Source: an uncultured virus (IMG/VR IMGVR_UViG_3300014205_000203)
Lineage: Duplodnaviria > Heunggongvirae > Uroviricota > Caudoviricetes
DNA: 64,000 nt
Strand: one strand, 5' to 3'
IMG/VR virus record: IMGVR_UViG_3300014205_000203
Shown here: positions 1 to 46,719 of the stretch, in pieces
How the letters are laid out: each line of letters opens with the position of its first letter
Position numbering within the stretch: position 1 is the stretch's first letter
Program-made: the position numbers and the translations under genes
The notes under the pieces: model-generated
Databases searched by the model: none
What the model saw: the letters and a program-made list of their open reading frames with translations, nothing else
Told to the model about the DNA's origin: nothing

Positions 1-153
1 ACATGGGTAATGTTGCGTTGGTTCGCTGTTCGTGGATTGCAAACCGGTTCGATGGCTGGCTGTTGTGGGTGCATTGGATGATGGGGAATTGTGTAGGTGC
101 ATAGAGTAGGAGAAATATTTAAGAGGAAATGCTCTTATTTCAAACATTTTGTT

Positions 154-161
154 TATCTTAG
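154..161 (+). promoter_or_regulatory. Possible Bacteroidota-type -7 promoter element (TAnnTTAG variant) before the early operon
   Basis: TATCTTAG is one mismatch from the TAnnTTTG consensus and lies 4 nt before ATG 166. The same TAnnTTAG-N4-ATG layout occurs at 60055-60041 (-). Confidence 0.35.
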
Positions 162-165
162 TGGC

Positions 166-1851
166 ATGATTGACAATTTTGCTGCATATAAGGACAAGAA
201 AATACCACGTTCATGGGAACTAACGGTTGAGCCTATGTACTTGGTTGTTGATTTGTTTTGTGGTGCTGGTGGTGTTACTACCGGATTTGCAGAAGCGCAG
301 TTGAATGGCAATCCATTCGTTAAGGTTATTGCATGTATCAACCATGACCACAAAGCAATCAAAAGCCATTGGGCTAATCATCCAGAAGTAATACACTTTG
401 AAGAAGATATACGCACACTCGAATTGAGTGGCTTATGTGATACTGTTGAGTACTGGCGAAGGATGTACCCGAATGCGTTAGTAATACTTTGGGGTAGTTT
501 GGAATGTACCAATTACAGCAAAGCTAAAGGAGGACAGGAGAAAGATGCAGACAGCAGAACATTGATGTATGCACTATACAAACATTGGACTGGCGAAGGC
601 TATGGTAAATCATCTTACGTTGAGGGTAAGTCATACATTCAATACATTAATCCAGACTACATAATGATTGAGAATGTAGAGGAATTTAAGACAAAGAATG
701 AGGACTTTGACGAATGGTGTAATGAGATAAACACGTTCGGTTATCGCAATGAATGGACAATGTTAAACAGCGCAAACTTCGGTGCATATACCAGCAGAGA
801 TAGGCTCTTTGGTTGCTTCGCTAAAGATGGTTTGCCTATCGTATTCCCACAACCAACACACGCAAAGAAGGTAGGAGTAAGCAAGAAGAACATGCTATTT
901 GCTGAATCATTACAACAATGGAAAGCTGTGAAGGAAGTATTAGATTTCACAGATGAAGGCAAGAGTATATTCAACCGTAAGAAGCCATTGGTAGAAGCTA
1001 CGCTGGCTCGTATCTATGCTGGGTTGATTAAGTATGTGGCTAATGGCGATACATCGTTTATTGCGAAGTATTACAGCGGCAGACCTAAAGGAAAAGTAAC
1101 CAGCACAGAGAATCCATTAGGAGCCATTACAACCGCTGGTAATCAGTCATTGATACAGTCTGTACGTTTCATAGATAATCAATACGGCAGAGGATATGCC
1201 AGCAGCATAGAAGACCCATTGAGTACACAAACAACTAAACCACGCCACAGCATTGTAGAAGTACAGAAATATGCTGCTACTCAAATACAAGATATTAATT
1301 CCCCTACTGGCGCTTTAATGACTACCGATAAGAATAGCCTTATTACTACTGTTCCTTTCATAATGGATACACAATTCAATAACACAGTTAGAAGCGTGGA
1401 AGATCCTATGGGAGTTATAACAGCTAATCGTAAATATCATTACTTAGTTAACCCATCATTCCCTAAAAATCCAAACAGAGGATTGCACAGCACAGACCAA
1501 CCGGCACCAGTTATTGTAGCCAGCCAAAATAAAGCACCGCTGCGTATGATTACCGTTGAGCATGGCTTAGTGCAAATACCTATCTATGATACAGACAGCG
1601 ATACAATGATTAAGATTAAAGAGTTCATGGTTATCTATGGTCTGGTTGATATTAAAATGAGAATGTTGAGGGTGCAAGAGTTAAAGATAATACAAGGCTT
1701 TCCTGCTGATTATATACTGGATGGTACACAGGAAGACCAGAAGAAATTTATCGGCAATAGCGTGGTGCCACAGGTCGTTAAATCATGGATAGAAGCAATG
1801 GCACAGGCAACCACGCCAGTAATAATAATGGAATACAAAAAAGCAGCATAA
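166..1851 (+). CDS. C5-cytosine DNA methyltransferase
   Basis: Motif I DLFCGAGG, catalytic SLECTNYS, motif VI ENVEEF, motif VIII SRDRLF, C-terminal QGFP and IGNSV. The centre has about five S-x-x-x-P-x-x-x-x-T-like repeats. ATG 166 preferred over GTG 97. Confidence 0.92.
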   Translation: MIDNFAAYKDKKIPRSWELTVEPMYLVVDLFCGAGGVTTGFAEAQLNGNPFVKVIACINHDHKAIKSHWANHPEVIHFEEDIRTLELSGLCDTVEYWRRMYPNALVILWGSLECTNYSKAKGGQEKDADSRTLMYALYKHWTGEGYGKSSYVEGKSYIQYINPDYIMIENVEEFKTKNEDFDEWCNEINTFGYRNEWTMLNSANFGAYTSRDRLFGCFAKDGLPIVFPQPTHAKKVGVSKKNMLFAESLQQWKAVKEVLDFTDEGKSIFNRKKPLVEATLARIYAGLIKYVANGDTSFIAKYYSGRPKGKVTSTENPLGAITTAGNQSLIQSVRFIDNQYGRGYASSIEDPLSTQTTKPRHSIVEVQKYAATQIQDINSPTGALMTTDKNSLITTVPFIMDTQFNNTVRSVEDPMGVITANRKYHYLVNPSFPKNPNRGLHSTDQPAPVIVASQNKAPLRMITVEHGLVQIPIYDTDSDTMIKIKEFMVIYGLVDIKMRMLRVQELKIIQGFPADYILDGTQEDQKKFIGNSVVPQVVKSWIEAMAQATTPVIIMEYKKAA

Positions 1852-1878
1852 TTAACCACTAACATAAACCATAACATC

Positions 1879-2352
1879 ATGTCAGCTACATCAACCAAAA
1901 CCTACAAATCATTTGCAAAGAATTTCAGGATTATTTGCGAGCCAGATGCACCAGCATTTAACAAAGTAAAAGTTTCCAGTTCAAGGGAGATTGATTTCTT
2001 TCTACGCAACCTTTGGAACATTGGACAGGATATTGAAATTGTTGAATCGTTCTATATCCTTCTTCTTAATCAGGGTAACAATATTACAGGATGGGTTAAG
2101 CTATCGTCTGGTGGTTTAACTGGTACAGTTGCAGACCCAGTACTGGTTGCTAAGTATGCAATAGAGCAGTTAGCTAAAAAGGTTGTAATAGCCCATAATC
2201 ACCCATCTGGAAACCTCCAACCATCAAGAGCCGATGAAGAAATGACAAGGCGCATAAAGGAAGGATTAAAGCTATTCGATATTCAGTTACTCGACCATAT
2301 CATTTTAACAGACGAAAGCTATTACTCATTCTCTGATGAAGGCATAATATAA
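1879..2352 (+). CDS. radC: RadC-like JAB/MPN domain protein
   Basis: ESFYILLL, AHNHPSGNLQPSRAD, LLDHIIL and YYSF motifs. Confidence 0.92.
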   Translation: MSATSTKTYKSFAKNFRIICEPDAPAFNKVKVSSSREIDFFLRNLWNIGQDIEIVESFYILLLNQGNNITGWVKLSSGGLTGTVADPVLVAKYAIEQLAKKVVIAHNHPSGNLQPSRADEEMTRRIKEGLKLFDIQLLDHIILTDESYYSFSDEGII

Positions 2353-2382
2353 TTCACCACTAATAAAATAAACTATAAAGCA

Positions 2383-2814
2383 ATGAACGCACAAAACACA
2401 CGCAGCAATCAAATAACCTTCCTTACAGCCTTTAGCACTCTATGGGTTGATGTAACAGCCATTGAAGCGCAGGATGGCAAAAATGGGCTGGAAACAACAG
2501 AAGGAAGCGACCAGCTAACCATAATGTTAAACTCATTCTGTAATGTAACGGGGTTACCTCAAATGAGTGCAGATGATCTTCTATTGAAATTACAGGATGA
2601 AGAAGTAAAAGCAGAAGCAAAATTATTCTTCTGGAAAGATAAATCAGGTAGGGGACAAAGTGGGCCTGTTACATTAGCTGGCATCCTTAATACTGCCGAT
2701 GATGATGAAGTAAACTATGATGATATTAAATTGGCTGAATGGGCAGAGAGCGCAGAACAAGGCGAAGAATGGGAGAATAGCACCGACCACTATGTTTGCA
2801 CCGAGGTTAACTGA
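2383..2814 (+). CDS. Hypothetical acidic protein; stop codon lies in the hammerhead 1 core
   Basis: 143 aa ORF with an A-rich leader. It ends GTT AAC TGA. Confidence 0.75.
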   Translation: MNAQNTRSNQITFLTAFSTLWVDVTAIEAQDGKNGLETTEGSDQLTIMLNSFCNVTGLPQMSADDLLLKLQDEEVKAEAKLFFWKDKSGRGQSGPVTLAGILNTADDDEVNYDDIKLAEWAESAEQGEEWENSTDHYVCTEVN

Positions 2815-2861
2815 CGAGGTTTTAATAACCGAAACCGGACACCTGGTGTCCGGTCTTAACC
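2805..2861 (+). ncRNA. Hammerhead ribozyme, type I (HHR1)
   Basis: GGTTAA-CTGACGA-[GGTT ttaat AACC]-GAAA-[CCGGACAC ctg GTGTCCGG]-TC-TTAACC. Full core with perfectly paired stems I-III. Predicted cut after GUC at C2855. Confidence 0.95.
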
Positions 2862-2878
2862 AAATAAAAAGATCATTT

Positions 2879-3154
2879 ATGAAAAATTTAATCGCTTTTA
2901 TCATCATCGGATTGCTAATCCTGTCCTTCCCTGCCAATGCTCAACCAAAGGTTGTGGAAGATGCTAACGGTAACTATAAAGCCGTTAAGAGTACAACAGC
3001 ACCAGCGCCGGAGCCAGCAACCAAAACAAAGAAAACCTTTACAGACACAAAAGGTATTGTTTACCCTGTCATGGTATCAAAGAACGGTAAGGAGTTCTAT
3101 GAAAGAGTAAGCAAAAAGGGTAATAAATACCGTGTGTACATCAAGGTTAACTGA
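2879..3154 (+). CDS. Small predicted secreted protein; stop codon lies in the hammerhead 2 core
   Basis: MKNLIAFIIIGLLILSFPANA-Q is a Sec-type signal peptide. ATG 2879 follows an A-rich leader (track start 2717 rejected). Confidence 0.75.
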   Translation: MKNLIAFIIIGLLILSFPANAQPKVVEDANGNYKAVKSTTAPAPEPATKTKKTFTDTKGIVYPVMVSKNGKEFYERVSKKGNKYRVYIKVN

Positions 3155-3199
3155 TGATGGCTTTAATAGCCGAAACAGGCTGTAAAGCCTGTCTTAACC
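3145..3199 (+). ncRNA. Hammerhead ribozyme, type I (HHR2)
   Basis: GGTTAA-CTGATGA-t-[GGCT ttaat AGCC]-GAAA-[CAGGCT gtaa AGCCTG]-TC-TTAACC. One extra U follows the CUGAUGA box. Predicted cut after C3193. Confidence 0.92.
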
Positions 3200-3216
3200 A
3201 AATAAAAAACTACATC

Positions 3217-3558
3217 ATGTACACACTCAAAAACAAAGTTCAACTTATTGGAAATTTAGGCAATGCGCCAGAAATCAAACAAACAGAAAACGGCACTATG
3301 GCTCGTTTCTCAGTTGCTATCAATGAAACATTCCACAATGCAAAAGGGGAAAAAGTAAAAGAAACAACATGGCATAGTTGTGTTGCATGGGGTAAAGTAG
3401 CTAAGATAGTAGAGAAGTATTTAAACAAAGCTGGTGCTGTGGCTATTGAAGGCAAATTGATTAATAGAAGTTACACCGATAAGGAGGGTAACAAAAAATA
3501 CATTACAGAAATAGAGGTAGGAGAAATTCTTCTTCTTGGAATGACACAGGTTAGCTGA
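3217..3558 (+). CDS. ssb: Single-stranded DNA-binding protein (short form, no acidic tail); stop codon lies in the hammerhead 3 core
   Basis: NKVQLIGNLG, ARFSVA, TTWHSCVAWGK and EGKLINRSYTDKEGNKKYITEI motifs. Confidence 0.93.
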   Translation: MYTLKNKVQLIGNLGNAPEIKQTENGTMARFSVAINETFHNAKGEKVKETTWHSCVAWGKVAKIVEKYLNKAGAVAIEGKLINRSYTDKEGNKKYITEIEVGEILLLGMTQVS

Positions 3559-3602
3559 CGAGGATTTATTATCCGAAACTGCCAGCAATGGCAGTCTTAA
3601 CC
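3549..3602 (+). ncRNA. Hammerhead ribozyme, type I (HHR3)
   Basis: GGTTAG-CTGACGA-[GGAT ttatt ATCC]-GAAA-[CTGCCA gcaa TGGCAG]-TC-TTAACC. Stem I has a G-U wobble and stem III has a GNRA loop. Predicted cut after C3596. Confidence 0.95.
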
Positions 3603-3620
3603 AAAAACCAATTACACATC

Positions 3621-4091
3621 ATGGAAACAAGCGAAATTACTGACAGTAAAAATATCTTTGACGATGTTCTGACAGTTATACAAAAAACAAATGACGGTGC
3701 AAATTTATCACCAAAAGATTTACACCTTACCGAATGTGCTATTAATGGCTTTCTTACAGAAGAAGGGATAGCAGAGTTTTACAGCGTGTATCATAGGGTT
3801 ATAGATGGCACCTATGATAAGCTAAAAAATTACCTGTTCGGAGTTGAACACATTACTAAAGACCATGAATGTTATGTGTATTACAAAGGGAAGCACATAG
3901 ATCATTTTACTTTCAATGGAGATTATAAAGGAGAAAGACAAGCAGCCATTAAAGCGGCTAAAATATGCTCACTATTGGAAAGTAAGAATATTGAAGTATC
4001 ACCGCTTACATATTGTTGGAAGGTGGAAGATTACCTGACAGCAGAAGAACTTGCAACCATTGAAGAACCAATGGGAGCATACGCAGATTAG
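3621..4091 (+). CDS. Hypothetical protein
   Basis: ATG 3621 follows the leader ttaaccaaaaaccaattacacatc. The ORF is flanked by HHR3 and HHR4. Confidence 0.75.
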   Translation: METSEITDSKNIFDDVLTVIQKTNDGANLSPKDLHLTECAINGFLTEEGIAEFYSVYHRVIDGTYDKLKNYLFGVEHITKDHECYVYYKGKHIDHFTFNGDYKGERQAAIKAAKICSLLESKNIEVSPLTYCWKVEDYLTAEELATIEEPMGAYAD

Positions 4092-4101
4092 CCCAGTCAG
4101 A

Positions 4102-4206
4102 GGTTAACTGATGAAGGCTAATTGCCCGAAAATCGGTAAGCAGTAACAAAAGCTGTGTGCATCATGTACCAATGGTTTGTTATAGAAGTCTTACCGATTA
4201 TTAACC
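4102..4206 (+). ncRNA. Hammerhead ribozyme, type I variant with extended stem III (HHR4)
   Basis: GGTTAA-CTGATGA-[aGGC taatt GCCc]-GAAA-[ATCGGTAAG...49 nt...CTTACCGAT]-TA-TTAACC. The cleavage triplet is UUA, with the predicted cut after A4200. The base of stem II is an A-C mismatch. Confidence 0.8.
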
Positions 4207-4223
4207 AAAAAAATTGAAATACT

Positions 4224-4868
4224 ATGTACACACCCAATCCAGAAATCGCCAAAATAATTTATCCTCTTAGCTATGTAAACGGCTGTATAGTTGATAAAAT
4301 TGGTCAGGTAATAATGAAAATGAACAGGGAACACGATAGCACCCCTTTAACCCCATCTTACAGAGATGATCTTGCAAAAGAAATTGTCGAACTGTACAAC
4401 AAAGCACATAGCCCGTCCTTCTTATTGTTAAGCTGGTGTACAGAAGATGTAATTGATAGGGCAAATGATATTGAATATGAGCATGAGATAACAGAAGAAC
4501 AGGCTATTGAAATTCTGGCTATGCTTGATGATGCACACGATGCCAATGTTGGCATTAACTGGGAGATAATAGATATAGTTACCCAGCAGTATTTTGATGA
4601 AAAGGAAAAGGAGAAAGAATTAAGCGACTTATCAAAGTTTGAGTTTCGGGATGGCAATTTCTACCCTTATGTAGAAGTTATGCTGCATGGCAATCTTGAA
4701 ACCATATCTACTGAAAGCCTTAGTAAAGTATTGATGAATGATGATGGCACAGAGCCAGTTAGCGAAGAAGCTGAACGCATGGACAATGCTATTTATTTCT
4801 ATGTACCAGATGAAATGATAACAAAGCCATTATCGGAACTTAAAAAATACATATTAGAACACGAATAA
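4224..4868 (+). CDS. Hypothetical acidic protein
   Basis: 214 aa ORF starting 23 nt after the HHR4 cut site. Confidence 0.75.
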   Translation: MYTPNPEIAKIIYPLSYVNGCIVDKIGQVIMKMNREHDSTPLTPSYRDDLAKEIVELYNKAHSPSFLLLSWCTEDVIDRANDIEYEHEITEEQAIEILAMLDDAHDANVGINWEIIDIVTQQYFDEKEKEKELSDLSKFEFRDGNFYPYVEVMLHGNLETISTESLSKVLMNDDGTEPVSEEAERMDNAIYFYVPDEMITKPLSELKKYILEHE

Positions 4869-4901
4869 CAAACCTTTATTAATAAACCAAAATCAATTAC
4901 C

Positions 4902-5219
4902 ATGTTACTAAATGACAAAACAAACCAGAACAAAATTAAAAGGGCGCAAGCCATTTTAAGGGCAGTCAGCCACAATTTAAGGCGTTCAATATTGGACACA
5001 ATAGAATTGAACGACAACAAAATTACTGTTACCGAAATCTACGTAAAATTAAGACTGGAGCAATCCGTTGCCAGCCAGCACTTAGCCATCTTACGTAAGG
5101 CAGGAATAGTAAAAACAGAAAGGAGTGGTAAGCTAATTTATTATTCTGTTAACAGCTTAGTAATTGAAGATGTACTTCAATGTTGTGTTGACCTTGAAAA
5201 AGCTACTACCAAAAGTTAA
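4902..5219 (+). CDS. ArsR/SmtB-family winged-helix regulator
   Basis: ILRAVSHNLRRSIL, TVTEIYVKLRLEQSVASQHLAILRKAGIVKTERSGKLIYYS. Confidence 0.9.
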   Translation: MLLNDKTNQNKIKRAQAILRAVSHNLRRSILDTIELNDNKITVTEIYVKLRLEQSVASQHLAILRKAGIVKTERSGKLIYYSVNSLVIEDVLQCCVDLEKATTKS

Positions 5220-5222
5220 CCA

Positions 5223-5272
5223 AAACTAAATGCTGACGGGCAGCCGGAATGTTCGAGCCATTCTTTATGTTT
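5223..5272 (+). ncRNA. Putative structured intergenic RNA with a tRNA T-arm-like hairpin
   Basis: Hairpin GCTG-acggg-CAGC is followed by GAATG-TTCGAGC-CATTC (5-bp stem, 7-nt TTCGA loop). A weak outer AU helix is possible. Confidence 0.4.
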
Positions 5273-5288
5273 CTAAATTTTAAACATC

Positions 5289-5549
5289 ATGGAACAAGTA
5301 ATTATTATAGCCGTATTGATGAATATGGGCTACAAAAAAAAGGCTTATGGCTATCAGAAGTTAACTGACAATACAACCCACTGGGTAACATTGTTCGATA
5401 CCAGTATGCAGATATGGGGCTTCCCAACAGAAGCAGAGCATAATGATGAAGTTGGTAAAACGTATGATACCGGCACCGTTGCTTATGACACATTAACCCC
5501 TGCATTATTCAGGAGTGTTATAGACCTGTTTCTAATCAATCACCAATAG
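5289..5549 (+). CDS. Hypothetical protein
   Basis: 86 aa ORF with an aaacatcATG leader like its neighbours. Confidence 0.65.
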   Translation: MEQVIIIAVLMNMGYKKKAYGYQKLTDNTTHWVTLFDTSMQIWGFPTEAEHNDEVGKTYDTGTVAYDTLTPALFRSVIDLFLINHQ

Positions 5550-5555
5550 TGTATA

Positions 5556-5813
5556 ATGGTAACAAAAATAACCTTAACAGGCGCAGCCATATCTTCTCCA
5601 CTCATTCAACAGAGTGGAAAGGTAGAACGTGCCACGTTCAGCATAGCAGTAACAGTGAAAGAAGAAACCGCACACTTTCCCGTTATATGCGAAGGCGAAC
5701 ACCTGGTATCAAGGGTAAGGAATGGAGTAACCGTAGGAACAAGGGTAAGCGTGGAAGTTACAGGAACATACGACCAGTTAATAGTCAGTTCAATGCTAAT
5801 AATGGCACAATGA
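5556..5813 (+). CDS. Divergent SSB/PriB-like OB-fold protein
   Basis: KITLTG, ATFSIAV, HFPVICEG and VGTRVSVE parallel the SSB strand pattern. Confidence 0.55.
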   Translation: MVTKITLTGAAISSPLIQQSGKVERATFSIAVTVKEETAHFPVICEGEHLVSRVRNGVTVGTRVSVEVTGTYDQLIVSSMLIMAQ

Positions 5814-6142
5814 TACTCTTTAAGATATTTTTTGTATTTGCCTGGGCTTTTGTTACTGACTTGTGCGTGTTCGCTCCGATCTATTTATCAGGAAGAATTT
5901 TGAAATTAATATTTTATAAACCCAAAACAAAAAAAAGACAATTTATGAAAAGAGTAATGTTAACCACTTGGCAGCTTTGCGCTGAAACCAAAGTAAGAAT
6001 GGAAAAGAATACGCTGGCGTATCAGGACACAACCACAAAAAAGGTTTATTCCTTATGCTCTGACGAAGTAAGAAGGTGGCTATCTGGTGGTGATGGTTCC
6101 ATCATTCCAAATGAAGAACCTGTTCCTAAAGAGGAAAGGTAG
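5810..6142 (+). CDS. Hypothetical protein (N-terminal hydrophobic segment; alternative start 5945)
   Basis: ATGA overlap with the previous stop. The track start at 5549 is rejected. Confidence 0.5.
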   Translation: MILFKIFFVFAWAFVTDLCVFAPIYLSGRILKLIFYKPKTKKRQFMKRVMLTTWQLCAETKVRMEKNTLAYQDTTTKKVYSLCSDEVRRWLSGGDGSIIPNEEPVPKEER

Positions 6143-6193
6143 CAACCATTCAATACCTATCAAGAACCCATTTACTAACTCAAACAAAATTTT

Positions 6194-6607
6194 ATGCAAC
6201 AACAATTCTTTAAAATAGAAAACTACGATGTAACCGACACAGAAGTTATCGTTACTACTGAACGGTACAAAATTGCCATCCCGGTTACTATTCCGAGGGA
6301 TAAGTTTGAATTGTGGTTAAGGGTAAAAGGTAAGCTACAATGGACTATCCACACTGGGGGTAAAATAAAGCAGTTCACCGGCACCATGTCATTGCCCGAA
6401 TACTGGGCAATAGATCAACAGCACATCAAACAGGATATTTACGAATACATCATCCTGCATCCAATTAAAAGGGATGGCGTTGTGTATTCAAATAGCATTG
6501 ATAGCCTGTTACTGGCCTTTGACCTCCACAACTCCCAGCGTGTAAACCCTGTATTTAATACCAGGTGGGAGTTTGAACAGGAAATTTTTGAACAAGTACT
6601 AAATTAA
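6194..6607 (+). CDS. Hypothetical protein
   Basis: 137 aa ORF with an A-rich leader. Confidence 0.7.
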   Translation: MQQQFFKIENYDVTDTEVIVTTERYKIAIPVTIPRDKFELWLRVKGKLQWTIHTGGKIKQFTGTMSLPEYWAIDQQHIKQDIYEYIILHPIKRDGVVYSNSIDSLLLAFDLHNSQRVNPVFNTRWEFEQEIFEQVLN

Positions 6608-6612
6608 TAGGT

Positions 6613-6804
6613 ATGTACACAACTAAAAATTACTATGCAAAAAAGATCAGGCAGCAATTAAAAAAGGCTGATGATGCCCGTATTGAAGCTGTTAAAGCTA
6701 ATAAAGACAATAATGCTTTGAGTATTGCCTATCTCACAGCACTATCTAATTTGAGCAACACTATTCAGCGAGCAATTACACACATTCAAAAAGAAAAAAA
6801 ATGA
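6613..6804 (+). CDS. Hypothetical protein
   Basis: 63 aa ORF tightly packed in the operon. Confidence 0.6.
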   Translation: MYTTKNYYAKKIRQQLKKADDARIEAVKANKDNNALSIAYLTALSNLSNTIQRAITHIQKEKK

Positions 6805-6953
6805 AAACAACAATCGCACACTTTCAATCTGCCATCATTGGCTATGTACGTATGGGCGCTTCCATACTGGAAATCGTTAGTAACATTGGTATAGCTGCAT
6901 CTGATGTAGAGGCGGTTATTATCCAGAACAAACTGCCTGTTAAACCAAACTAA
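6801..6953 (+). CDS. Small hypothetical protein (50 aa, not in ORF track)
   Basis: ATGA overlap. MKTTIAHFQSAIIGYVRMGASILEIVSNIGIAASDVEAVIIQNKLPVKPN fills the gap exactly. Confidence 0.6.
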   Translation: MKTTIAHFQSAIIGYVRMGASILEIVSNIGIAASDVEAVIIQNKLPVKPN

Positions 6954-6964
6954 ATTTTAAAGCT

Positions 6965-7660
6965 ATGCAGGAACTTATAACAGTTACGATAATGTACCGC
7001 AATAATTATGATGGCGGTGATGGGTGGACTTACTACCCAATGAGAATACGAATAGGCAGTAAATGCCCTGTTTGTAATGGGCTACGTGGTAAACCATACG
7101 AGTATAGGTTTTGTGATGATGGCGAATGGTTTACAGTTGATAAATGGGATAACCCGTGTGGGCACCTTGACAAGTATGGAGATGTTTATAAAGAATCAAA
7201 AAAAATTACAGAAATGATCTACAACGAATTTAAGCCGCTAAATTTCCCCGATGGGGTTAAATCAGTACTAACAGCCGAACGCTATCAAGGAACGCCGGTT
7301 ATTGTCTATACCAATGGCATAGAGCAGCATGTTTACAACATGGAAGGTGAACGGCTGGCGCTGCTATCCAGTTTCAAAGGAATAGACTTTTTAAAGCTGT
7401 CTTCCTCGGGTAAATGGTTTGCTTATGCCGGTGTGTATTTGAAGACAAGGAATTTGGGTAAAATCGTTCTGAATGAGGCTGTAAAGTTTGTTATAACCGA
7501 TGTGCTGGTGTACGATGGCGAATGTGTCATTAATATGCCTGGGGAAATAAGGGTACAAACATACCTATCAAAAATGCAGTACCATCCTGCAGCCGGGAAA
7601 GCGGAGATTTACAATTTTGTATCAGGCACCCCGATAAGTGGTGTATTTATAAACGCATAA
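6965..7660 (+). CDS. Zn-ribbon-like domain fused to a degenerate ATP-dependent ligase-like domain
   Basis: N-terminal CPVC...CGH. The C-terminal half has AERYQG (cf. KxDG) and ITDVLVYDG (cf. ligase motif IIIa). Confidence 0.45.
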   Translation: MQELITVTIMYRNNYDGGDGWTYYPMRIRIGSKCPVCNGLRGKPYEYRFCDDGEWFTVDKWDNPCGHLDKYGDVYKESKKITEMIYNEFKPLNFPDGVKSVLTAERYQGTPVIVYTNGIEQHVYNMEGERLALLSSFKGIDFLKLSSSGKWFAYAGVYLKTRNLGKIVLNEAVKFVITDVLVYDGECVINMPGEIRVQTYLSKMQYHPAAGKAEIYNFVSGTPISGVFINA

Positions 7661-8343
7661 TGATAGTAACAATCAATACAGATGCCTCATGGCACCCAAA
7701 AGAAAACTATGCAGGATTTGCTTTCTGGATAGTTTGTGATCAGGGTAAGTTTTGCCATGCAGGTATTTTAAAGAAACGGGTTATGCGACCAGAGATCGCA
7801 GAATTTAAGTGCATCATTAATGCTATCTATGTGCTGGGTAAACTCAATTACTCTAACGTAAACAAGATCATTATAAACACAGATTGCCTTAATGTTATTC
7901 ACCTGATTAAGAAGGACAAGAAAGCCATTAATATGTATGGTCTTCATTGGGGTAAGCACCTGGTATTAGAATATGAAAGATTGCTTAAAATTCAGAAAAT
8001 ACCAAAGAACAGATTTGATTTCCGGCATGTAAAAGCCCATGAAGAAATAAGCACTGCAAGGCAATATGTAAATGACTGGTGCGATAAAGCAGCGAAGGAA
8101 CAAATGTGGAAGAAGGTTAACAGTACAAAAGCTATTGTAAAAAACTGGAATGATTTAAAAGATCAGTTTGGATATGAAAGAGCAAAGCTGCTGGCTATGT
8201 CTGTAAGTAATGGTATTACTTGCTGGCCTCCACCTGACCATTTGGAGTTTCCATGTAGCGACAATAGTGATGCTATTGCATTATTCAGCCTTGTGGAAAC
8301 AGATAAGAAAATAATTTACGAATACAGAGGAACAGCTAATTAA
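7660..8343 (+). CDS. RNase H-like (RNase HI fold) protein with C-terminal extension
   Basis: INTDAS, AEF, INTDC, RHVKAH and NDWCDKAA match the RNase HI acidic catalytic pattern. Confidence 0.85.
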   Translation: MIVTINTDASWHPKENYAGFAFWIVCDQGKFCHAGILKKRVMRPEIAEFKCIINAIYVLGKLNYSNVNKIIINTDCLNVIHLIKKDKKAINMYGLHWGKHLVLEYERLLKIQKIPKNRFDFRHVKAHEEISTARQYVNDWCDKAAKEQMWKKVNSTKAIVKNWNDLKDQFGYERAKLLAMSVSNGITCWPPPDHLEFPCSDNSDAIALFSLVETDKKIIYEYRGTAN

Positions 8344-8349
8344 ATAATT

Positions 8350-8670
8350 ATGCATCCAATTATATTAGACGGCAAAAAATATTATTACCATTTTCAAAAG
8401 CTATCCAGAAATAGCACTGACCCTATATTTGGAGAGTTTAGGATTAATTTTTATAGGAAAGTCATAGTTCCTAAATGGAAGTTCTGGTTTATAAAATCAT
8501 CAACGAAAATTGAAAACACTATTGATATGGGTTATGTTGATGGAACTTTTGAAATAGTAGGCGACTTCGATTCCATGTCAGAAATGAAGAAGCAACGAGA
8601 AATTGTAAGACCGTCATTAATAGGTTTTATTACTGAACACAACAAGCGAACAAACTCACTCACCAAATAA
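8350..8670 (+). CDS. Hypothetical protein
   Basis: 106 aa ORF in the operon. Confidence 0.6.
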   Translation: MHPIILDGKKYYYHFQKLSRNSTDPIFGEFRINFYRKVIVPKWKFWFIKSSTKIENTIDMGYVDGTFEIVGDFDSMSEMKKQREIVRPSLIGFITEHNKRTNSLTK

Positions 8671-8677
8671 AAAAACA

Positions 8678-9115
8678 ATGAAAAAAGTAACAGTATTTGA
8701 CAACAAGACACTTGCAGTAATCGGCAGATTATTACAATCAAAAGCCGCCCACATTGCAAAATCTCATAAAAGAATGTTTTTGGAAAGTGGATATATCCTC
8801 TTTGCTCCTTTCTACATGAGAGATAAACTATTCGCCCAGGTAAAGCCGGGAGAACGTCATTTAAAATTGATTGAAGAACCCACTATGTACCCACAGGTAT
8901 TTATAACGGGTGAATTGCCAACCAATTACCCTGCAGAATTTTACAAAGCTGCGTTAACTGCCGATGCATTGGCTGGCTGGGGTGCTTGTATGGCTGGTAT
9001 TCCAATGCCTGAAAAATTCGGCTGGGGAATGATGATGATAGGCACTGTATTGGGCATTACTATGACCCCGGACAGTGTATCAGAATACGCAAAACAATTT
9101 TTACCACAATCATAA
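8678..9115 (+). CDS. Hypothetical protein
   Basis: 145 aa ORF in the operon. Confidence 0.65.
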   Translation: MKKVTVFDNKTLAVIGRLLQSKAAHIAKSHKRMFLESGYILFAPFYMRDKLFAQVKPGERHLKLIEEPTMYPQVFITGELPTNYPAEFYKAALTADALAGWGACMAGIPMPEKFGWGMMMIGTVLGITMTPDSVSEYAKQFLPQS

Positions 9116-9139
9116 TTAAAAACTAAAAAATCAAATTTT

Positions 9140-9463
9140 ATGAGTACAGCAACACAACCAAAATTACCATCAGATTTTACAATAGCCCCGTGGAACTCGG
9201 TGCTACAAAAATCAGAAGCAGAAACCATAGCGGCAAACATTATGGTTATCCTGAAAAGAACCGGCAACCAGTGGAGAACCTTAACCTGGGATGAATACAA
9301 GGAAGAAAGGCTAAAGGATGCAAAAACTGACAGGAGCCATTTCACCGAAGGCGAAAAGTTTTATTTTGATCTGTGTATTCCCTATTGCTTAACTGCCGAA
9401 ACCGCTGCTTTATTTGCGCCAGACTGGAAAAAAATTGCTAACGGTGAACCCATTGACTGCTAA
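9140..9463 (+). CDS. Hypothetical protein
   Basis: 107 aa ORF with an A-rich leader. Confidence 0.7.
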   Translation: MSTATQPKLPSDFTIAPWNSVLQKSEAETIAANIMVILKRTGNQWRTLTWDEYKEERLKDAKTDRSHFTEGEKFYFDLCIPYCLTAETAALFAPDWKKIANGEPIDC

Positions 9464-9466
9464 CCT

Positions 9467-10186
9467 ATGAACACACTATTTCACAGGGGAGAAGACCCCA
9501 AAGATGAATGGTTAACACCTCCAAAGATTAAAGAACCTTTGGGGGTGTTCGACCTTGACCCGTGCGCTCCGGTTAACCGTCCGTGGGACACAGCCAAAAA
9601 ACACTATACCATCGAAGATAACGGGCTAATACAGCCGTGGGAAGGTAGAGTGTGGATGAATCCCCCATATTCAAATATGGAGCCGTGGATGAAGCTATTA
9701 GCAGAGCATGGAAACGGGTTTGCCCTGACCTTTGCCCGGACAGAAACCGCATGGTTTGAACGCTGGGGATGGGGTAAAGCTGATAGTATGTTTTTCTTCT
9801 TTGGTCGTCTTACCTTCTATGAACTGCCAAAAGTAACCACAGGATCTTTGTTTGGTGCAGACGGACGGGTGCCGGTTAAGGGAAAAGGAAATGCCGGGGC
9901 TCCATCCGTCCTGATCGCTTACGGTAAGAATAACGTAGAAGCGTTACACGAATACAAGATACCAGGTAAGCACGTACAGCTTACATATACTCCCATCATT
10001 GTAGTAGGCATATCTCCAAAATGGATATCAGTAGTAACCATTGCTGTAAAACAATTCGGGGATGATGAATTACAACCAGTGTATGATATGGTTGAAAGGA
10101 TTGCGCCGGACAAGGTGGCTAAAAACCAGCACTGGAAAGCAAAGGTTAGACAACAAATTCAGTTAATCAGAAAACAAAAGGTATGA
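9467..10186 (+). CDS. Phage Dam-like DNA N6-adenine methyltransferase
   Basis: DEWLTP, FDLDPCA, VWMNPPY, ARTETAWF and GRLTF motifs. Confidence 0.9.
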   Translation: MNTLFHRGEDPKDEWLTPPKIKEPLGVFDLDPCAPVNRPWDTAKKHYTIEDNGLIQPWEGRVWMNPPYSNMEPWMKLLAEHGNGFALTFARTETAWFERWGWGKADSMFFFFGRLTFYELPKVTTGSLFGADGRVPVKGKGNAGAPSVLIAYGKNNVEALHEYKIPGKHVQLTYTPIIVVGISPKWISVVTIAVKQFGDDELQPVYDMVERIAPDKVAKNQHWKAKVRQQIQLIRKQKV

Positions 10187-10662
10187 TACGAACTCCTTAC
10201 ATGCAGCAGATAATGAACGATACCTACAATCAGGTTGCCATTATCGCAATTAAAAACGGCACTATTGAAGGTGCCTGGGAAGAAGCAGTTGCAGCAAGAT
10301 TAATGCTCGACTTTAATCACGGTGTTTCAGAAGCAGAGGTAATTCTGCAATTTGCAGACAATGATGAAAAGAAGGCCGCAGACCTTATTATCACATCATC
10401 ACTTCCAGAAGTGCCGGAGATATTCAATATTGAATTTCAGTATCAGGAATATTTAAAGCGTGTGGCATTGTCCGAAGAACACATGCACCAGCAGCAGAAA
10501 AAACAACTCCGGGAAACATTCTTTGGTGCCGTTGGCTGTGTGCTTATCCTCCTGCGTAATGAAACACAGAAACTATCGGAAGAAGATTCTATCAAAGCAT
10601 TCCAGTCTATGCTTGACCAGGTAGGGGAATTTTTTCTTAAAAAATCAGATCAACAAAATTAA
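10183..10662 (+). CDS. Hypothetical protein
   Basis: 159 aa ORF with an ATGA overlap. Confidence 0.65.
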   Translation: MIRTPYMQQIMNDTYNQVAIIAIKNGTIEGAWEEAVAARLMLDFNHGVSEAEVILQFADNDEKKAADLIITSSLPEVPEIFNIEFQYQEYLKRVALSEEHMHQQQKKQLRETFFGAVGCVLILLRNETQKLSEEDSIKAFQSMLDQVGEFFLKKSDQQN

Positions 10663-10663
10663 T

Positions 10664-10879
10664 ATGGGATATTTTGTAGCAAAACAAGGGCCTGACAAAT
10701 ACACAAAACGTAAAGCATCTAAGGATTGCTGGTGTCTTTGTTGCGAAGAACCTATTAAAAAAGGGGAAGAACGATATGTAGAATCGCATAGGCTAAATTT
10801 ATGTTGCCTGTGTTTTGATCAATGGGACGGGATGCCGCACGGAACAGCTTTAGGTAATATACCAAGATGTAAGAGATAA
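10664..10879 (+). CDS. Small Cys-rich (Zn-finger-like) protein
   Basis: CLCCEEPIKKGE...CCLC. Confidence 0.6.
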   Translation: MGYFVAKQGPDKYTKRKASKDCWCLCCEEPIKKGEERYVESHRLNLCCLCFDQWDGMPHGTALGNIPRCKR

Positions 10880-10890
10880 AATACTACAGT

Positions 10891-11124
10891 ATGAAAAAAC
10901 TCTATAAAACTAAAAGGAAGGGGACTATTTTAACGAACCTGCAGAAGCCGTTAGCTTCGCACCAAACTAAGATCTGTTCAGTAAAACTTGTCTGCGGAGG
11001 CATACCTCTCCCAAATAACCGGAGCCACTTCTATGCTAACTGTTCTGCCTGTATTGCTTGTACAGCTGAAAAATCAAAAAAGAAGTGGGAGGAAAAGAAA
11101 AAAAGCAAAGAGATTTATTTATAA
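10891..11124 (+). CDS. Small basic Cys-containing protein
   Basis: CxxxxxC...CxxCxxC; Lys-rich. Confidence 0.5.
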   Translation: MKKLYKTKRKGTILTNLQKPLASHQTKICSVKLVCGGIPLPNNRSHFYANCSACIACTAEKSKKKWEEKKKSKEIYL

Positions 11125-11141
11125 CTATAAAAGCTACCATT

Positions 11142-11528
11142 ATGAGATTATTTAAAAAATTCAGCAGCTTCAATCTTAGCCATTATATCCTTGTATCAAT
11201 AACTTTTCGTGGCTGGTGTTACCTTGAAGAAAATGAACGGGAAAATTTGATCACTGCAATAATGAATAGTAAAGTAATTGTTGACGGTAAAGCATATTAC
11301 AAATTACAGGCTGGCCTTGTTATGCAGATATTTGGAGCCCAGTCCTCCGGTTCACACCAGTTAATAGAAACAAATATCCTGATTCCAAAGGGCACCCAAA
11401 GTGAACTGAAAATATACAGGAGGAAAGTTAGAAACCAAAAGCTAAAGGTTATTGCGACCTGGGTAGGAATTTATGTAGTAAGTGTAGTGGTTCTTTACTA
11501 CCTAATATCAAAATACACCGGATTATAG
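11142..11528 (+). CDS. Hypothetical membrane-anchored protein
   Basis: ATG 11142 and a C-terminal hydrophobic helix. Confidence 0.55.
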   Translation: MRLFKKFSSFNLSHYILVSITFRGWCYLEENERENLITAIMNSKVIVDGKAYYKLQAGLVMQIFGAQSSGSHQLIETNILIPKGTQSELKIYRRKVRNQKLKVIATWVGIYVVSVVVLYYLISKYTGL

Positions 11529-11529
11529 A

Positions 11530-11766
11530 TTATTGTACTGCACGGCGCATCCATCCCAGTAAAAACTTTCGCTGGGATGGATTACGGGCTATTATAGCCA
11601 AATAATATTTCACCTTCTCTACTTTGTAATTAGCTAAGAATAGTTTTGAATAAAGGCTATCGTTTGTCTTTTTAAGCTGGGCGCAATATGCACTATCAAC
11701 CTTAACCTGGGCAGATGATTGCTGGCTCAATAGCAAGGGGAATAATATTAACAGTAAGTACCTCAT
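11530..11766 (-). CDS. Secreted coiled-coil protein of the lysis module (possible spanin-like)
   Basis: Signal peptide MRYLLLILFPLLLSQQSSAQ; overlaps the endolysin stop. Confidence 0.5.
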   Translation of the reverse strand: MRYLLLILFPLLLSQQSSAQVKVDSAYCAQLKKTNDSLYSKLFLANYKVEKVKYYLAIIARNPSQRKFLLGWMRRAVQ

Positions 11767-12158
11767 TTGTTGTTAAGTTTATTTATAAATGAATTGCTGG
11801 CTGTTCCTGTTTCTTCAATGCTTAATGATCTCTGTGCAAGTTTTACAGCTTGTTTTACTCCATAATTTACAGCACTATCATAGAGGGAATCGGCAATTTC
11901 CTGATTGGTAATTTCATCCCCCCTGATCTTATTCCAGAATGTGTTTACATAAAAGGTATGTACCATTTCTTCCAGTTCTGGAAATATTGTACCGTGGGCT
12001 ATTGGCTTTTTCTTATCAATGATTTTCCAACCTTCCCAATTAGGAAAATTAACCCGGCTGATACCTTTGTATGTTTCACCCCCGAGATCGCCAGCTACGT
12101 GGTTCCAGCCACCCTCATTAACTGCCGTCTTTTTATGTGCTAATAAAAACTTTGCCAT
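11763..12158 (-). CDS. Endolysin, glycoside hydrolase family 108-like
   Basis: NEGGW...DLGGETYKGIS catalytic signature, and LYDSAVNYG...AVKLAQ. Confidence 0.88.
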   Translation of the reverse strand: MAKFLLAHKKTAVNEGGWNHVAGDLGGETYKGISRVNFPNWEGWKIIDKKKPIAHGTIFPELEEMVHTFYVNTFWNKIRGDEITNQEIADSLYDSAVNYGVKQAVKLAQRSLSIEETGTASNSFINKLNNK

Positions 12159-36700: not shown

Positions 36701-36828
36701 TTGTAAATAGATTGCAACCCAGCATCCAAATTTTTGGCAACACGGGAGTACGCAATAAACTCAACAAGATCGTTAAGGTCGTTGCGTAGTGTGGTATTCT
36801 TTACTAAACAAGAAATATCAAGCATCAC
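33712..36828 (-). CDS. Large helical protein, putative injected (cargo) virion protein
   Basis: 1038 aa, follows the giant polyvalent genes. C-terminal HhH-like ILPGIGPKT. Confidence 0.55.
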   Translation of the reverse strand: MMLDISCLVKNTTLRNDLNDLVEFIAYSRVAKNLDAGLQSIYNDIRMSGIEVDLQTIGFIYNDVLPKSYAQFDSDHDVNEYALKSYNDAINRAARLEAPEQLERQIGQNSPDLEVVNGILNMFTKLNTEISDPIYSDMRMMQEALWKGIQRKLNLTNSAVPKDQKDWEELLTQALGYENLGMTDINGRLNGIDDLFNSMKDQLDTATQEMEAKGDYATAQKWREMTGKLKASAYSLLFSKQEAKTFITSIMKEAGYGKELKDGKTVIDWKKLSNETGSVLDIYNNIDRVMRDKGYSDSVIDGVQDSFVNELNDLNAKIVEWRLKQMENKSEALNRASNKKTDLKRLAELNNLGIFQSAHDKLLSSVVGISDLQAQDLADLEELAKAASNLYREIDKNYGNDVFASSALQTIQRHIDRIVQRNINNKSVLMRIISAIKNFMDILLTGMLMGPLTIMENWLSGIKETMTPILSGKAKFTNTEDREVYRSVLADVIVRGQAYGEEVGSFAPRELYSNSLRWKWKGGTLKDKAESVLYGLMAPARLGLLGFDSANKAVITNKTFHNAMYQALLQHGKTEEEAANILNEALHGKKFEDAKTDASDILNNINTQLSAKYAIPVNNSTITRLANDLVKANLNTDGLFTDRAKAIEIVVSTLKGSYHVAGYGLGHEPNNPLSKMIKDARDRMVKGEEKLRSAKKWDRLAWHKLGSTFMNGMILRFTGGATNWVVLRAQSGLGLGIASGFLGGNANADIDFKNTDTIKQSIRERLGARNQIGRGMAGLSYTLMGYVVYYLLTKGGDDDRERKKKRLEELSKYVQTPEVKLEIKQLTSEASIMQQIKSSYMGNRLFKKVSPDLMLLQYYVQTDKNAWMGATNYVIKTSGIASDFSTASKFNDAMNYYRNNEIDPGNGALASIAGDRTAVPLWRAYKDWYKLGNWIVGNNVSSDFKKPTNISEGIFGGGALEDWGVYQRNSSITILPGIGPKTIERYKTLGIENMGDLEKNPGWENMMYINEKGQPEFILDSDDRKAAKAAAEKWIKEN

Positions 36829-39800
36829 TTACATTTATCAATGAAATTTTTAATTTTGTCAACTATGCTGCTCATGCCTCCCTTCTTCGCAATTTCATCT
36901 GCTTTTGCAGCTGCAGTTTTTTGCGCTTCAACCGGCGACATAGTTTTTTTATTCTGTTTCTTCTTTATGTTGTCAGCTTTTTTTTCTGCCGCCTCTGCCT
37001 CTGCCGCATCCTTCTCCTGCTGACTGATTTTACGAAATTCTTCAATTCCCGCTTGAACACGACTTTCAATATCGGCCTGTTCAGCTTGTAATTTACGTAA
37101 TAAGTTTTGGTCTTTAATTTCACGTTCTTCAAGTATTTGGTTAGCAAATAGATCACCCATATATTTATCACGATACAACCGTAACAATGCACCGGCAGAA
37201 ACCTCTTTACCTCTTTTATTCATGTACTCCTGATAATACTGTGTAACTGCATTATCCAATCCACGCAGTTCATCTACCCTTTCTGGATTACGGTTTATTT
37301 CTTCCCGAATTTCTCCCAGGAAGGTTGCCATCAGCACTGCTTTTTTAGCCAACAGTTCTTCATCACCACTCATGCCTTTAATATAATTGAAAAGAGGCTG
37401 GCCGTAATCGGATAGATCGCTGCCCCATTTTCCCATTGCGGCACCAATCATATTTTTACCATCCTGCAACATATCAACACGGCGCTGGGTGAGGTAGCTT
37501 TGATCTCCTTCTGGAGCATAACCCAAAGCGGAAGTAATTGTATTACCGGAAAGCATATCCTTCACTTCGCCAGAGGTTGACATTTGATAATCACCGATCG
37601 GGTCCCGGCTTTCCCATTCTTCATAATCTTGTTGGTTGTCCTCCTGTTCTTCTTCCTTCTGGCGCTCTCTTAAAATATCAGCAACAGCACGGGTAGAAAA
37701 TTCTTCAAAGGTTAAATTTTGAAGTTCTGCAGAAGTAATATTGTCAAAGCCTAAAGCATTTTTGATAGCATTCCATAAAGATTTTAACCATGCAGTAATG
37801 CCTTCTTTTCTTGCTTCTGTTACAAACTGGGCTCCTTTATCTCCAATAGCCATAGCAAGAGCCTCATGCTGATAAAACCTTTCTCTTTCATCCTCTGCAA
37901 GTTTTGCAGCCTGTTGTTGATAGAAAGGATTTGATTTTACTTTGTCCAGGTACGAACTGCCAGAAACAAGTTCAATACCACGGTTATAAATTTCTGGTCT
38001 GTTTTGTTGTGCCCAATTAGTCCAGATATGCCCAGCTTCATGGATGGGGGTATTAGGATTAAGATGTTTACCGTTAAGATAAATTTTACCGGCATGAGTA
38101 AATCCTAAAATTTTACCTTCTGGTGAATACTGAAAGAAAACATCATCCAACTTGTATTTTTTAATTATATCCTTAGCTTCCTGCATTTCTGAATCTCTAA
38201 AAAATTCTTGTAACACAGGGGTTCCTTCCGATATATAAATACCTATCATCCTTTCAATAAACTTGTGTGCATCATATTCAAGACTACCTTTTCTATCATA
38301 CTCTATGCTATCGTATTCTTCCTGTGTAGCATAATCCTTTTGGTCAAATTCCACTTTACTGGAATACTGTGCAGCATGGGCTAATTCTGTTACGAAATCA
38401 TCAAAGCTGGCAATGTTACCTAATTGAATATTTCCTTTAAAAATATCGGCTGTCGCATAAGGCCGCTTTCTGTTAGCCAAATCATATTTCGTCCTTAAAA
38501 TATCAGGCTTACCGAAACGCTCCCATAATTTTAAAGCCCGTTCTATAACTTCCTTTGGCGCAACTTCATCATTAACAGCATAAGATTGTTGCAACAACTC
38601 AACAACAGTATTTTTAGTAGAAATATCAACTTTAGGGTTTGATGTTGAAAGAGTAATTGTAGTTAACGCAGCAGCTACAAAGTTCCTTACATAATTCTGG
38701 TATTCCACATTGCCCAGTTCTGCGGCTTTATCTTTTAAAGCCTCTGTGTTTGGTAATATCTCAACCCCATTGCCATTAATAGCATTAAGGTTACTTTCAA
38801 TTCTATCAATCACACTCATTACCATAGCAAAAGGTGTATCTTCTCCCCGGCCATATTCGTGGTATGCTTCTTCTACCAGTTTACGCATTTGTGGTGAATC
38901 ATCTTCCAGTTCCGTAGCTACAAGGTTTTGAATATCCACCAGACGATTATTACCCAGGTCTATTTGCTCTTTAACAACTTCCTGCATTTCCTGTATTTCA
39001 TCGGGAGTAGGGCCGGTAACAGAAAATTCAGGTTCCATTTCTGCATCATCCTCATTTGGCCGTCCTTCCTCTTTGTAGGTGAAGAAGCGGAAACCATCTT
39101 GCTTTGCAAGGTTAACCATGTGCCCTAAATTGCCGGAAGTTTTTAAACCCAGTGCATTTGATAAGTCCTGATCATTTGCTATTCTTAGCACCTGACCATC
39201 TGAACGGATAACATATAAATTTTCCAGTTCAAATTCATTAGGAAATTCTTCACGTTCGCCCAGGGCTTCAAGTTCTTCAGCAGAAGGAACACTTTTTTGT
39301 TTTGACATTTCATCAAGCAAAGTGGCTAACCTCAATTGATTTGCAACAGCATCTTCCAGTTCTTTTTGTTTAGGAAATTCGGCTGGTAATGATTCAAGAT
39401 ACTGGCTCTTGTCCTTAATATCTTTTTCATAAGATTTAAGCCACCCCTTTTTTCGGTCAATATCTGGTTGCTGGTTCCTTATTTCACGTTGGAAGTACCC
39501 AGCCAGACTAACAGCATCAACAGAAAAAGACGGGTCGTATGGAACATTAGAAATAGGGCTCTTAACTGTGAAGTATGGCACTAATTGAACTCCCTTTTCT
39601 CCTTCATCCCCCCTCATTTTTATAACAACATCAAAGCCAGCAATATTTCCTATCACTTTTGAATCGCTCTTTACCTCTTTCCAATCTTTCTTTTTTAATT
39701 TAAGAGTTTCAGGATAACGCTGTACAAAATCCCTGATATAATCTTTCCGAACCTGCAGCAGTTTATCTCCGGCTTTTTTACGCTCTGTAAATTCTTCGCC

Positions 39801-46562: not shown

Positions 46563-46710
46563 TACCGTTGTCGGTTTTTTCTTTATTCTGCATTAATAAT
46601 ATTTCTGTAATATCAGCCAAAGAAAGTGCTATTGATTTTAAAAGGTCCACTACCTCTTTATGGCGCTGTTCCTCAATAATCCTTTGTATTTTTTCATCTT
46701 CTGTTGGCAT
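46555..46710 (-). CDS. Small hypothetical protein (51 aa, not in ORF track)
   Basis: MPTEDEKIQRIIEEQRHKEVVDLLKSIALSLADITEILLMQNKEKTDNGNG fills the gap between the giant ORFs and overlaps the next start. Confidence 0.55.
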   Translation of the reverse strand: MPTEDEKIQRIIEEQRHKEVVDLLKSIALSLADITEILLMQNKEKTDNGNG

Positions 46711-46719
46711 GAGGTAAAT

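Follow-up and report, generated by a model that had tools for sequence, protein, structure and literature searches.

Near one end of a 64,000-nt stretch of DNA from an uncultured virus of the Caudoviricetes (IMG/VR IMGVR_UViG_3300014205_000203; the whole stretch is referred to below as the window), three consecutive small genes end on UGA stop codons that are also part of the catalytic core of a hammerhead ribozyme. This arrangement raises the question of whether the core UGA was selected as a stop codon, such that a terminating ribosome would cover the core and translation would gate self-cleavage, as an initial annotation of the window proposed, or whether the overlap results from genome compaction, which the same annotation gave as the alternative.

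The window is a segment of a phage genome. Its minus strand encodes a terminase large subunit, virion proteins, a DarB-like protein and an endolysin, and positions 1-11.5 kb of the plus strand carry a block of small genes that includes a methylase, a RadC-like protein, a single-stranded DNA-binding protein (ssb) and an RNase H. The phage probably has a Bacteroidota host, because the close named relatives of its ssb are mostly of Chitinophagaceae type. Within 36825-53718 on the minus strand, a 3245-aa DarB-like methylase/helicase adjoins a 2332-aa protein without a Pfam or PHROG match.

Three of four hammerheads in the window overlap an upstream stop codon

The genes ending in EVN, KVN and QVS terminate, as initially annotated, on the core UGA of real hammerheads (HH1-HH3; Table 1): their TGA stops lie at 2812-2814, 3152-3154 and 3556-3558, and a type I descriptor places the core C at 2811, 3151 and 3555. 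Each TGA forms positions 2-4 of CUGA(C/U)GA, directly after the 5' strand of the 6-bp stem I. Most other early genes do end in UAA, since among the 21 plus-strand ORFs listed the stops of the other 18 are 12 TAA, 3 TAG and 3 TGA. The frame is the same at HH1-HH3, as initially annotated. It differs at a fourth, degenerate copy that the initial annotation did not include (HH4, at 4102-4206; counterpart of the core C at 4108): the gene before it terminates on a TAG at 4089-4091, 20 nt ahead of the core UGA, such that the core-UGA overlap is found at three of the window's four hammerheads.

Table 1. Hammerheads, flanking genes and a leader in the early block of the window.
Feature	Position	Strand	Details
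Hypothetical gene, 143 aa, ends in EVN	2383..2814	+	Stop is HH1 core UGA; weak phrog_9962 match
HH1, type I hammerhead	2804..2862	+	Stem I 2805-2810/2856-2861, core 2811-2817, stem II 2818-2830, GAAA 2831-2834, stem III 2835-2853; predicted cut after GUC at 2855; hammerhead fold is the minimum-free-energy fold
A-rich leader, 17 nt, HH1 stem I to next ATG	2862..2878	+	Probable translation-initiation region
Gene for 91-aa protein with hydrophobic N-terminus, ends in KVN	2879..3154	+	Stop is HH2 core UGA; phrog_16207
HH2, type I hammerhead	3144..3200	+	One extra U after A9; predicted cut after GUC at 3193
Short ssb, ends in QVS	3217..3558	+	Stop is HH3 core UGA; PF00436, phrog_44
HH3, type I hammerhead	3548..3603	+	Predicted cut after GUC at 3596; minimum-free-energy fold has the hammerhead shape
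Hypothetical gene, 156 aa	3621..4091	+	UAG stop upstream of HH4
HH4, degenerate hammerhead	4101..4207	+	Does not pass the type I descriptor

Residues and base pairs are numbered according to the standard hammerhead scheme. HH1-HH3 each have a 6-bp stem I, a 4-bp stem II, GAAA, a stem III and a GUC site, and the descriptor that finds these three matches in the window gave a mean of 0.015 matches in 200 order-2 Markov resamples. Membership of the type I class is further indicated by the CUGANGA core and GAAA around three helices, by the open-ended stem I and loop-closed stems II and III, and by an NUH triplet (here GUC) together with the pairs A15.1-U16.1 and G10.1-C11.1, which are named in passages of PMC3088659 (Perreault 2011); HH4 has this last set of features only in part. 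HH4 has a mismatched first stem II pair (10.1-11.1), a stem III of ~67 nt with an internal hairpin, and a UUA cleavage triplet, which is absent among the triplets of the 382 listed survey candidates described below; its activity is doubtful, and it is possibly decaying. For HH2, a predicted inactive rival fold (3159-3190), in which the 5' strand of stem II pairs with the 3' strand of stem III, is 3.3 kcal/mol more stable than the hammerhead fold in a prediction that leaves out tertiary contacts. No Rfam (release 15) model reached its gathering score in the window, and none matched at E up to 10 in positions 1-10000, which lowers the case for membership of an Rfam family and not of the hammerhead class.

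Longer ORFs at 2717-3154, 3154-3558 and 3588-4091 were rejected as giving the true starts because their first codons fall in or before ribozymes and the shorter starts follow A-rich leaders; the shorter starts agree with homologue lengths for the first two of these three re-started genes. The ssb is called as 134 aa in the protein database (P0005), starting at an ATG that overlaps the core of HH2; its homologues are 114-124 aa, favouring the start at 3217. A sigma-70 promoter scan gave matches below the chance level, and matches to TANNTTTG, a motif taken from general knowledge, were uninformative.

A survey of related hammerheads

We scanned IMG/VR with one pattern based on stem I and two based on stem II, which matched at least 129, at least 125 and at least 133 stretches, and took full flanks for 80 stretches per scan. 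Among the matches listed there are 407 distinct type I candidates, 382 of them strict, and an upstream ORF could be assigned for 364; of the remainder, 12 have too little context and six have no such ORF. Excluding the window's own three left 278 unambiguous ORFs of at least 60 aa, which collapse by protein family and stop position to 250 non-redundant junctions from 181 loci (hereafter, listed junctions). These counts include any recoded phages, and related phages are collapsed only partly. Genes were called as the longest ORF, which is crude. Offsets are counted from the U of the core UGA to the first base of the stop codon.

The core and stems of the 382 strict candidates are demanded by the descriptor, whereas the identities of the first stem II pair and of the cleavage triplet are not; the former is G-C in 377/382 and the latter is GUC or GUA in 342/382 of those listed. 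Many stem I pair types occur across the 382 listed candidates, with the pairing itself demanded by the scan. An A flanks stem I on its two sides in 96% and 97% of listed 6-bp modules (2804 and 2862 in the window), and loop II of the survey modules is short and ends in U, suggesting that the flanking A residues and loop II form a candidate tertiary contact. Six loci (L138, L139, L157, L171, L180 and L307) carry another type I form, which is GC-rich and has a longer stem II; stem I is 5 bp in most of these, and they share an A/C-rich 3' tail that is possibly involved in a pseudoknot. One IMG/VR contig (L318-L321) has ~12 candidate hammerheads in ~6 kb, mostly with a single stem I sequence.

Members of the family also occur in named phages. 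Flavobacterium phage elemoC_13-1C (MT497066.1) has a hammerhead at 5997-6056, annotated as an antisense hypothetical CDS, and an unannotated 21-aa ORF upstream of it stops on a UAG at -9; matches were found in 59 Flavobacterium phage records. Pelagibacter phages HTVC201P (MH598802.1:2266-2291) and HTVC019P (KC465901.1:2952-2977) match in core and stem II and are likely to be further members.

Upstream stops crowd the ribozyme without preference for the core UGA

The upstream stop is the core UGA in 44 of the 250 listed junctions. Stops in stem I are found in 48 (43 at -4 and five at -6), stops at -15 to -8 in 106, and stops at +10 or +11, in loop II, in 19, so that 217/250 lie within -15 to +11 of the core UGA. 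The other 33 comprise two beyond this range and 31 further upstream, a class that is inflated by missed small ORFs. Register shares are stable under stricter filters and in the subset selected on stem II: among listed junctions, core stops make up 42/224 when one junction is kept per protein family, 14/80 for ORFs of at least 100 aa, and 26/162 for loci picked by stem II. A separate set of 15 GTDB loci with 16 hammerheads, not pooled with the 250, has a similar register mixture, including at least three core stops on long ORFs.

A frame bias towards the core UGA across homologues, which the initial annotation would lead one to expect, is not seen once the availability of stop codons is taken into account. 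The core frame is used by 49 of 113 listed ORFs that enter the module, slightly above a flat one-third (p=0.028), and by 20 of 33 in listed modules without a -4 stop (p=0.0014), five of the 20 being -6 stops. A stop precedes the cleavage site in the core frame of all 250 listed modules, and in the other two frames of 201 and 158. When this is corrected for, the core frame is used in 49 of 112 listed cases against 46 expected (p=0.57). Use of the three frames departs from the availability model (49/18/45 seen, 46/29/37 expected, p=0.046; listed junctions), the residual being a deficit of read-through past the core into loop II. ORFs crossing the cleavage site are rare, with one seen against 21 expected among listed junctions. 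Two general rules emerge: upstream stops lie close around the ribozyme, and an ORF hardly ever extends across the cleavage site.

Listed modules that offer both stops use -4 in 43 cases and the core UGA in 29 (p=0.12). Members of one upstream protein family (n=15, listed) stop at -13, -11, -9, -4 and 0, and core stops are not clustered within loci (one pair seen, 2.6 expected; listed junctions). Tandem UGA-UGA is not enriched among listed core-stop cases (31/44 against 125/206 of the others, p=0.24). Among 27 listed arrays with at least three hammerheads, two have a same-register triple, in registers -4 and +10. At the family rate of 44/250, the probability of the window's triple is 0.005 for three of three, 0.019 for at least three of four, and 0.014 for any identical register; a same-register core triple is thus uncommon for one array.

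Related phages therefore stop at many nearby positions, which makes the overlap look like tight packing. Spacing on the two sides of the module was unequal. Among listed junctions, the median upstream gap is -1 nt, with the stop ending 1 nt inside stem I, and the downstream leader is at least 12 nt in 239/243; in the window, the leaders from stem I to the next ATG after HH1, HH2 and HH3 are 17, 17 and 18 nt. The module is packed hard on its upstream side and keeps a clear leader downstream. With the ribozyme subtracted, the stop-to-ATG gap has a median of 17 nt compared with 9 nt in 600 control junctions; this gap is ordinary, although junctions that have a ribozyme and those that lack one differ in gap distribution (p=1e-4). 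TTAACC, with which each predicted cleaved mRNA starts, also follows or overlaps ribozyme-free stops in the window (1852-1878 and 5216-5221), where it may serve as a leader motif or be left over from ribozymes that have been lost.

Homologues of the genes that end in the ribozyme

The three closest homologues of the 91-aa protein (61-66% identity) all end in KVN, suggesting that the core-UGA register may have been inherited or kept in this lineage. For the DNA around these three, we found no relative in viral contigs, and the relatives in metagenomes are more distant and ribozyme-free; none of nine pattern matches sought for this DNA has an ORF ending at the motif. The family as a whole was located at 21 metagenome loci, and none of the 19 examined, at which the match reaches the C-terminus, has a hammerhead; these ribozyme-free relatives end at similar lengths, in YLKF, YLKIN or YLTL. 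In the ssb, five residues follow the last conserved Gly, compared with 5-7 in 118 of 119 listed homologues, of which none ends in VN or VS; one ends in SSSRG, which would fit the -4 register, as judged from the protein. No hammerhead was found at 23 viral ssb loci. For the EVN gene, a search of 30-77 aa proteins gave no shorter homologues. Because the ssb tail and the lengths in the KVN family match those of homologues, the ribozyme supplies last codons without lengthening the proteins.

Discussion

The compaction alternative is the best fit to the register counts, stop availability and spacing. We propose that these are probably polycistron-processing type I hammerheads packed against the upstream gene, with stops on the core UGA an outcome of compaction rather than a selected register. 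Hammerhead cleavage leaves an upstream piece that retains its stop codon, with two hairpins and a 2',3'-cyclic phosphate at its 3' end. In the window, the ribozymes would cut the polycistronic early transcript into single-gene mRNAs, and by established hammerhead chemistry each downstream piece would begin with 5'-OH-UUAACC and the short A-rich leader. The resulting mRNAs might each have their own stability or translation; on the plus strand, positions 1-12000 of the window contain no terminator-like site. The module would be confined to the space between the stop of one gene and the initiation region of the following gene, with overlap tolerated upstream and not downstream, and a gene running into it would survive only if its stop preceded the cleavage site. 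Because the invariant core UGA is the only stop present in every module, stops at this position are best read as survivorship under compaction, not as selected. Several observations count against compaction: the KVN ending in all three close homologues, the core-frame excess over one-third, the departure from the frame model at p=0.046, the uncommon triple, the unequal gap distributions and the crude ORF caller.

Selection of the core UGA so that a terminating ribosome sits on the catalytic core is favoured by its use in three of the window's four copies, the KVN ending in all three close homologues, and the raw excess of the core frame. The survey largely refutes this reading, which we now consider very unlikely: only 44 of the 250 listed junctions have the core stop, the excess disappears after availability correction, genes end on the stem I stop no less often, same-register triples elsewhere are at -4 and +10, and the SSSRG ssb homologue would fit -4. 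A special UGA register is unsupported because use of the core frame matches its availability share and orthologues drift between registers. Avoidance of non-stop mRNA, which the initial annotation suggested as a benefit, is borne out by the near-absence of ORFs that cross the cut, and applies to every register rather than to the core UGA alone.

A broader form of translational gating does not depend on the exact stop codon: the ribozyme may simply lie within reach of the terminating ribosome, such that upstream translation delays or resets its folding. The bacterial ribosome reaches ~10-15 nt in the 3' direction, which encompasses the 217/250 listed stops within -15 to +11, and a passing ribosome could reset the more stable rival fold of HH2. 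Nonetheless, ordinary intergenic spacing with the ribozyme subtracted predicts the same proximity, 31 of the 250 listed junctions are further away (some reflecting missed small ORFs), and predicted misfolding in the survey modules does not depend on stop register (p=0.28). Moreover, because cleavage is practically irreversible, a brief occlusion would for the most part only postpone it. We regard such gating as rather unlikely; if real, it would stem from general stop proximity and not from the identity of the UGA. Phage self-cleaving ribozymes would then have a role as a widespread switch in mRNA processing that senses translation, with upstream translation deciding if and when the RNA is cut; the core UGA would be the deepest of the common registers. 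It is less likely still that the modules serve mainly as repeated joints between cassettes, or as structured leaders, in gene shuffling, with cleavage secondary or partly decayed. Near-identical modules do lie between unrelated small genes (250 listed junctions from 181 loci), many-copy arrays exist, and HH4 is degenerate, but the core is intact, the G-C pair and the GUC or GUA triplet are kept in 377 and 342 of the 382 listed candidates, and the avoidance of the cleavage site by ORFs (one against 21 expected) implies cleavage in vivo.

The surveyed stop positions provide a natural allelic series together with two measurable rules, and the cultured Flavobacterium elemo phages, which carry a member of the family, provide a test system. 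Annotation is also affected, since Rfam misses these hammerhead copies and gene callers mis-annotate across them.

This class of element has been known since 2011, and the window's copies are ordinary type I hammerheads of a large phage family; type I hammerheads are treated as usual in bacteria and phages in passages of PMC13725137. We found no paper that reports stop codons within the cores of phage hammerheads in the literature searched, with limited coverage of subscription journals. In the main text of PMC3088659, the terms "stop codon", "ribosom", "translation" and "overlap" do not occur. The passages available from a 2019 review (PMC6765202) place phage and bacterial self-cleaving ribozymes near phage genes, suggest polycistron processing and call their purpose unresolved; they draw no link to termination, and "stop codon" is absent from its main text. 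Passages of Perreault 2011 (PMC3088659) describe clustered prophage hammerheads flanking single genes or short gene blocks, propose that long transcripts are processed into single-gene mRNAs, and report cleavage in vitro for three tandem sets and in E. coli for one. The window likewise has a phage operon in which single small genes are flanked by ribozymes, several in all, and shares with those clusters, as far as these passages describe them, tandem hammerheads between small, variable phage genes; it differs in its compact type I architecture (stem I of 6 bp, stem II of 4 bp) without an obvious pseudoknot. By inspection, the core consensus is like that of the Rfam hammerhead families. Hammerheads of eukaryotic RNA viruses are also alike in their type I topology and their location just 5' of ORFs, and one of them takes up the entire length of a small intergenic region and gives rise to a subgenomic RNA; initiation there is cap-independent, whereas the window belongs to a dsDNA phage with bacterial initiation.
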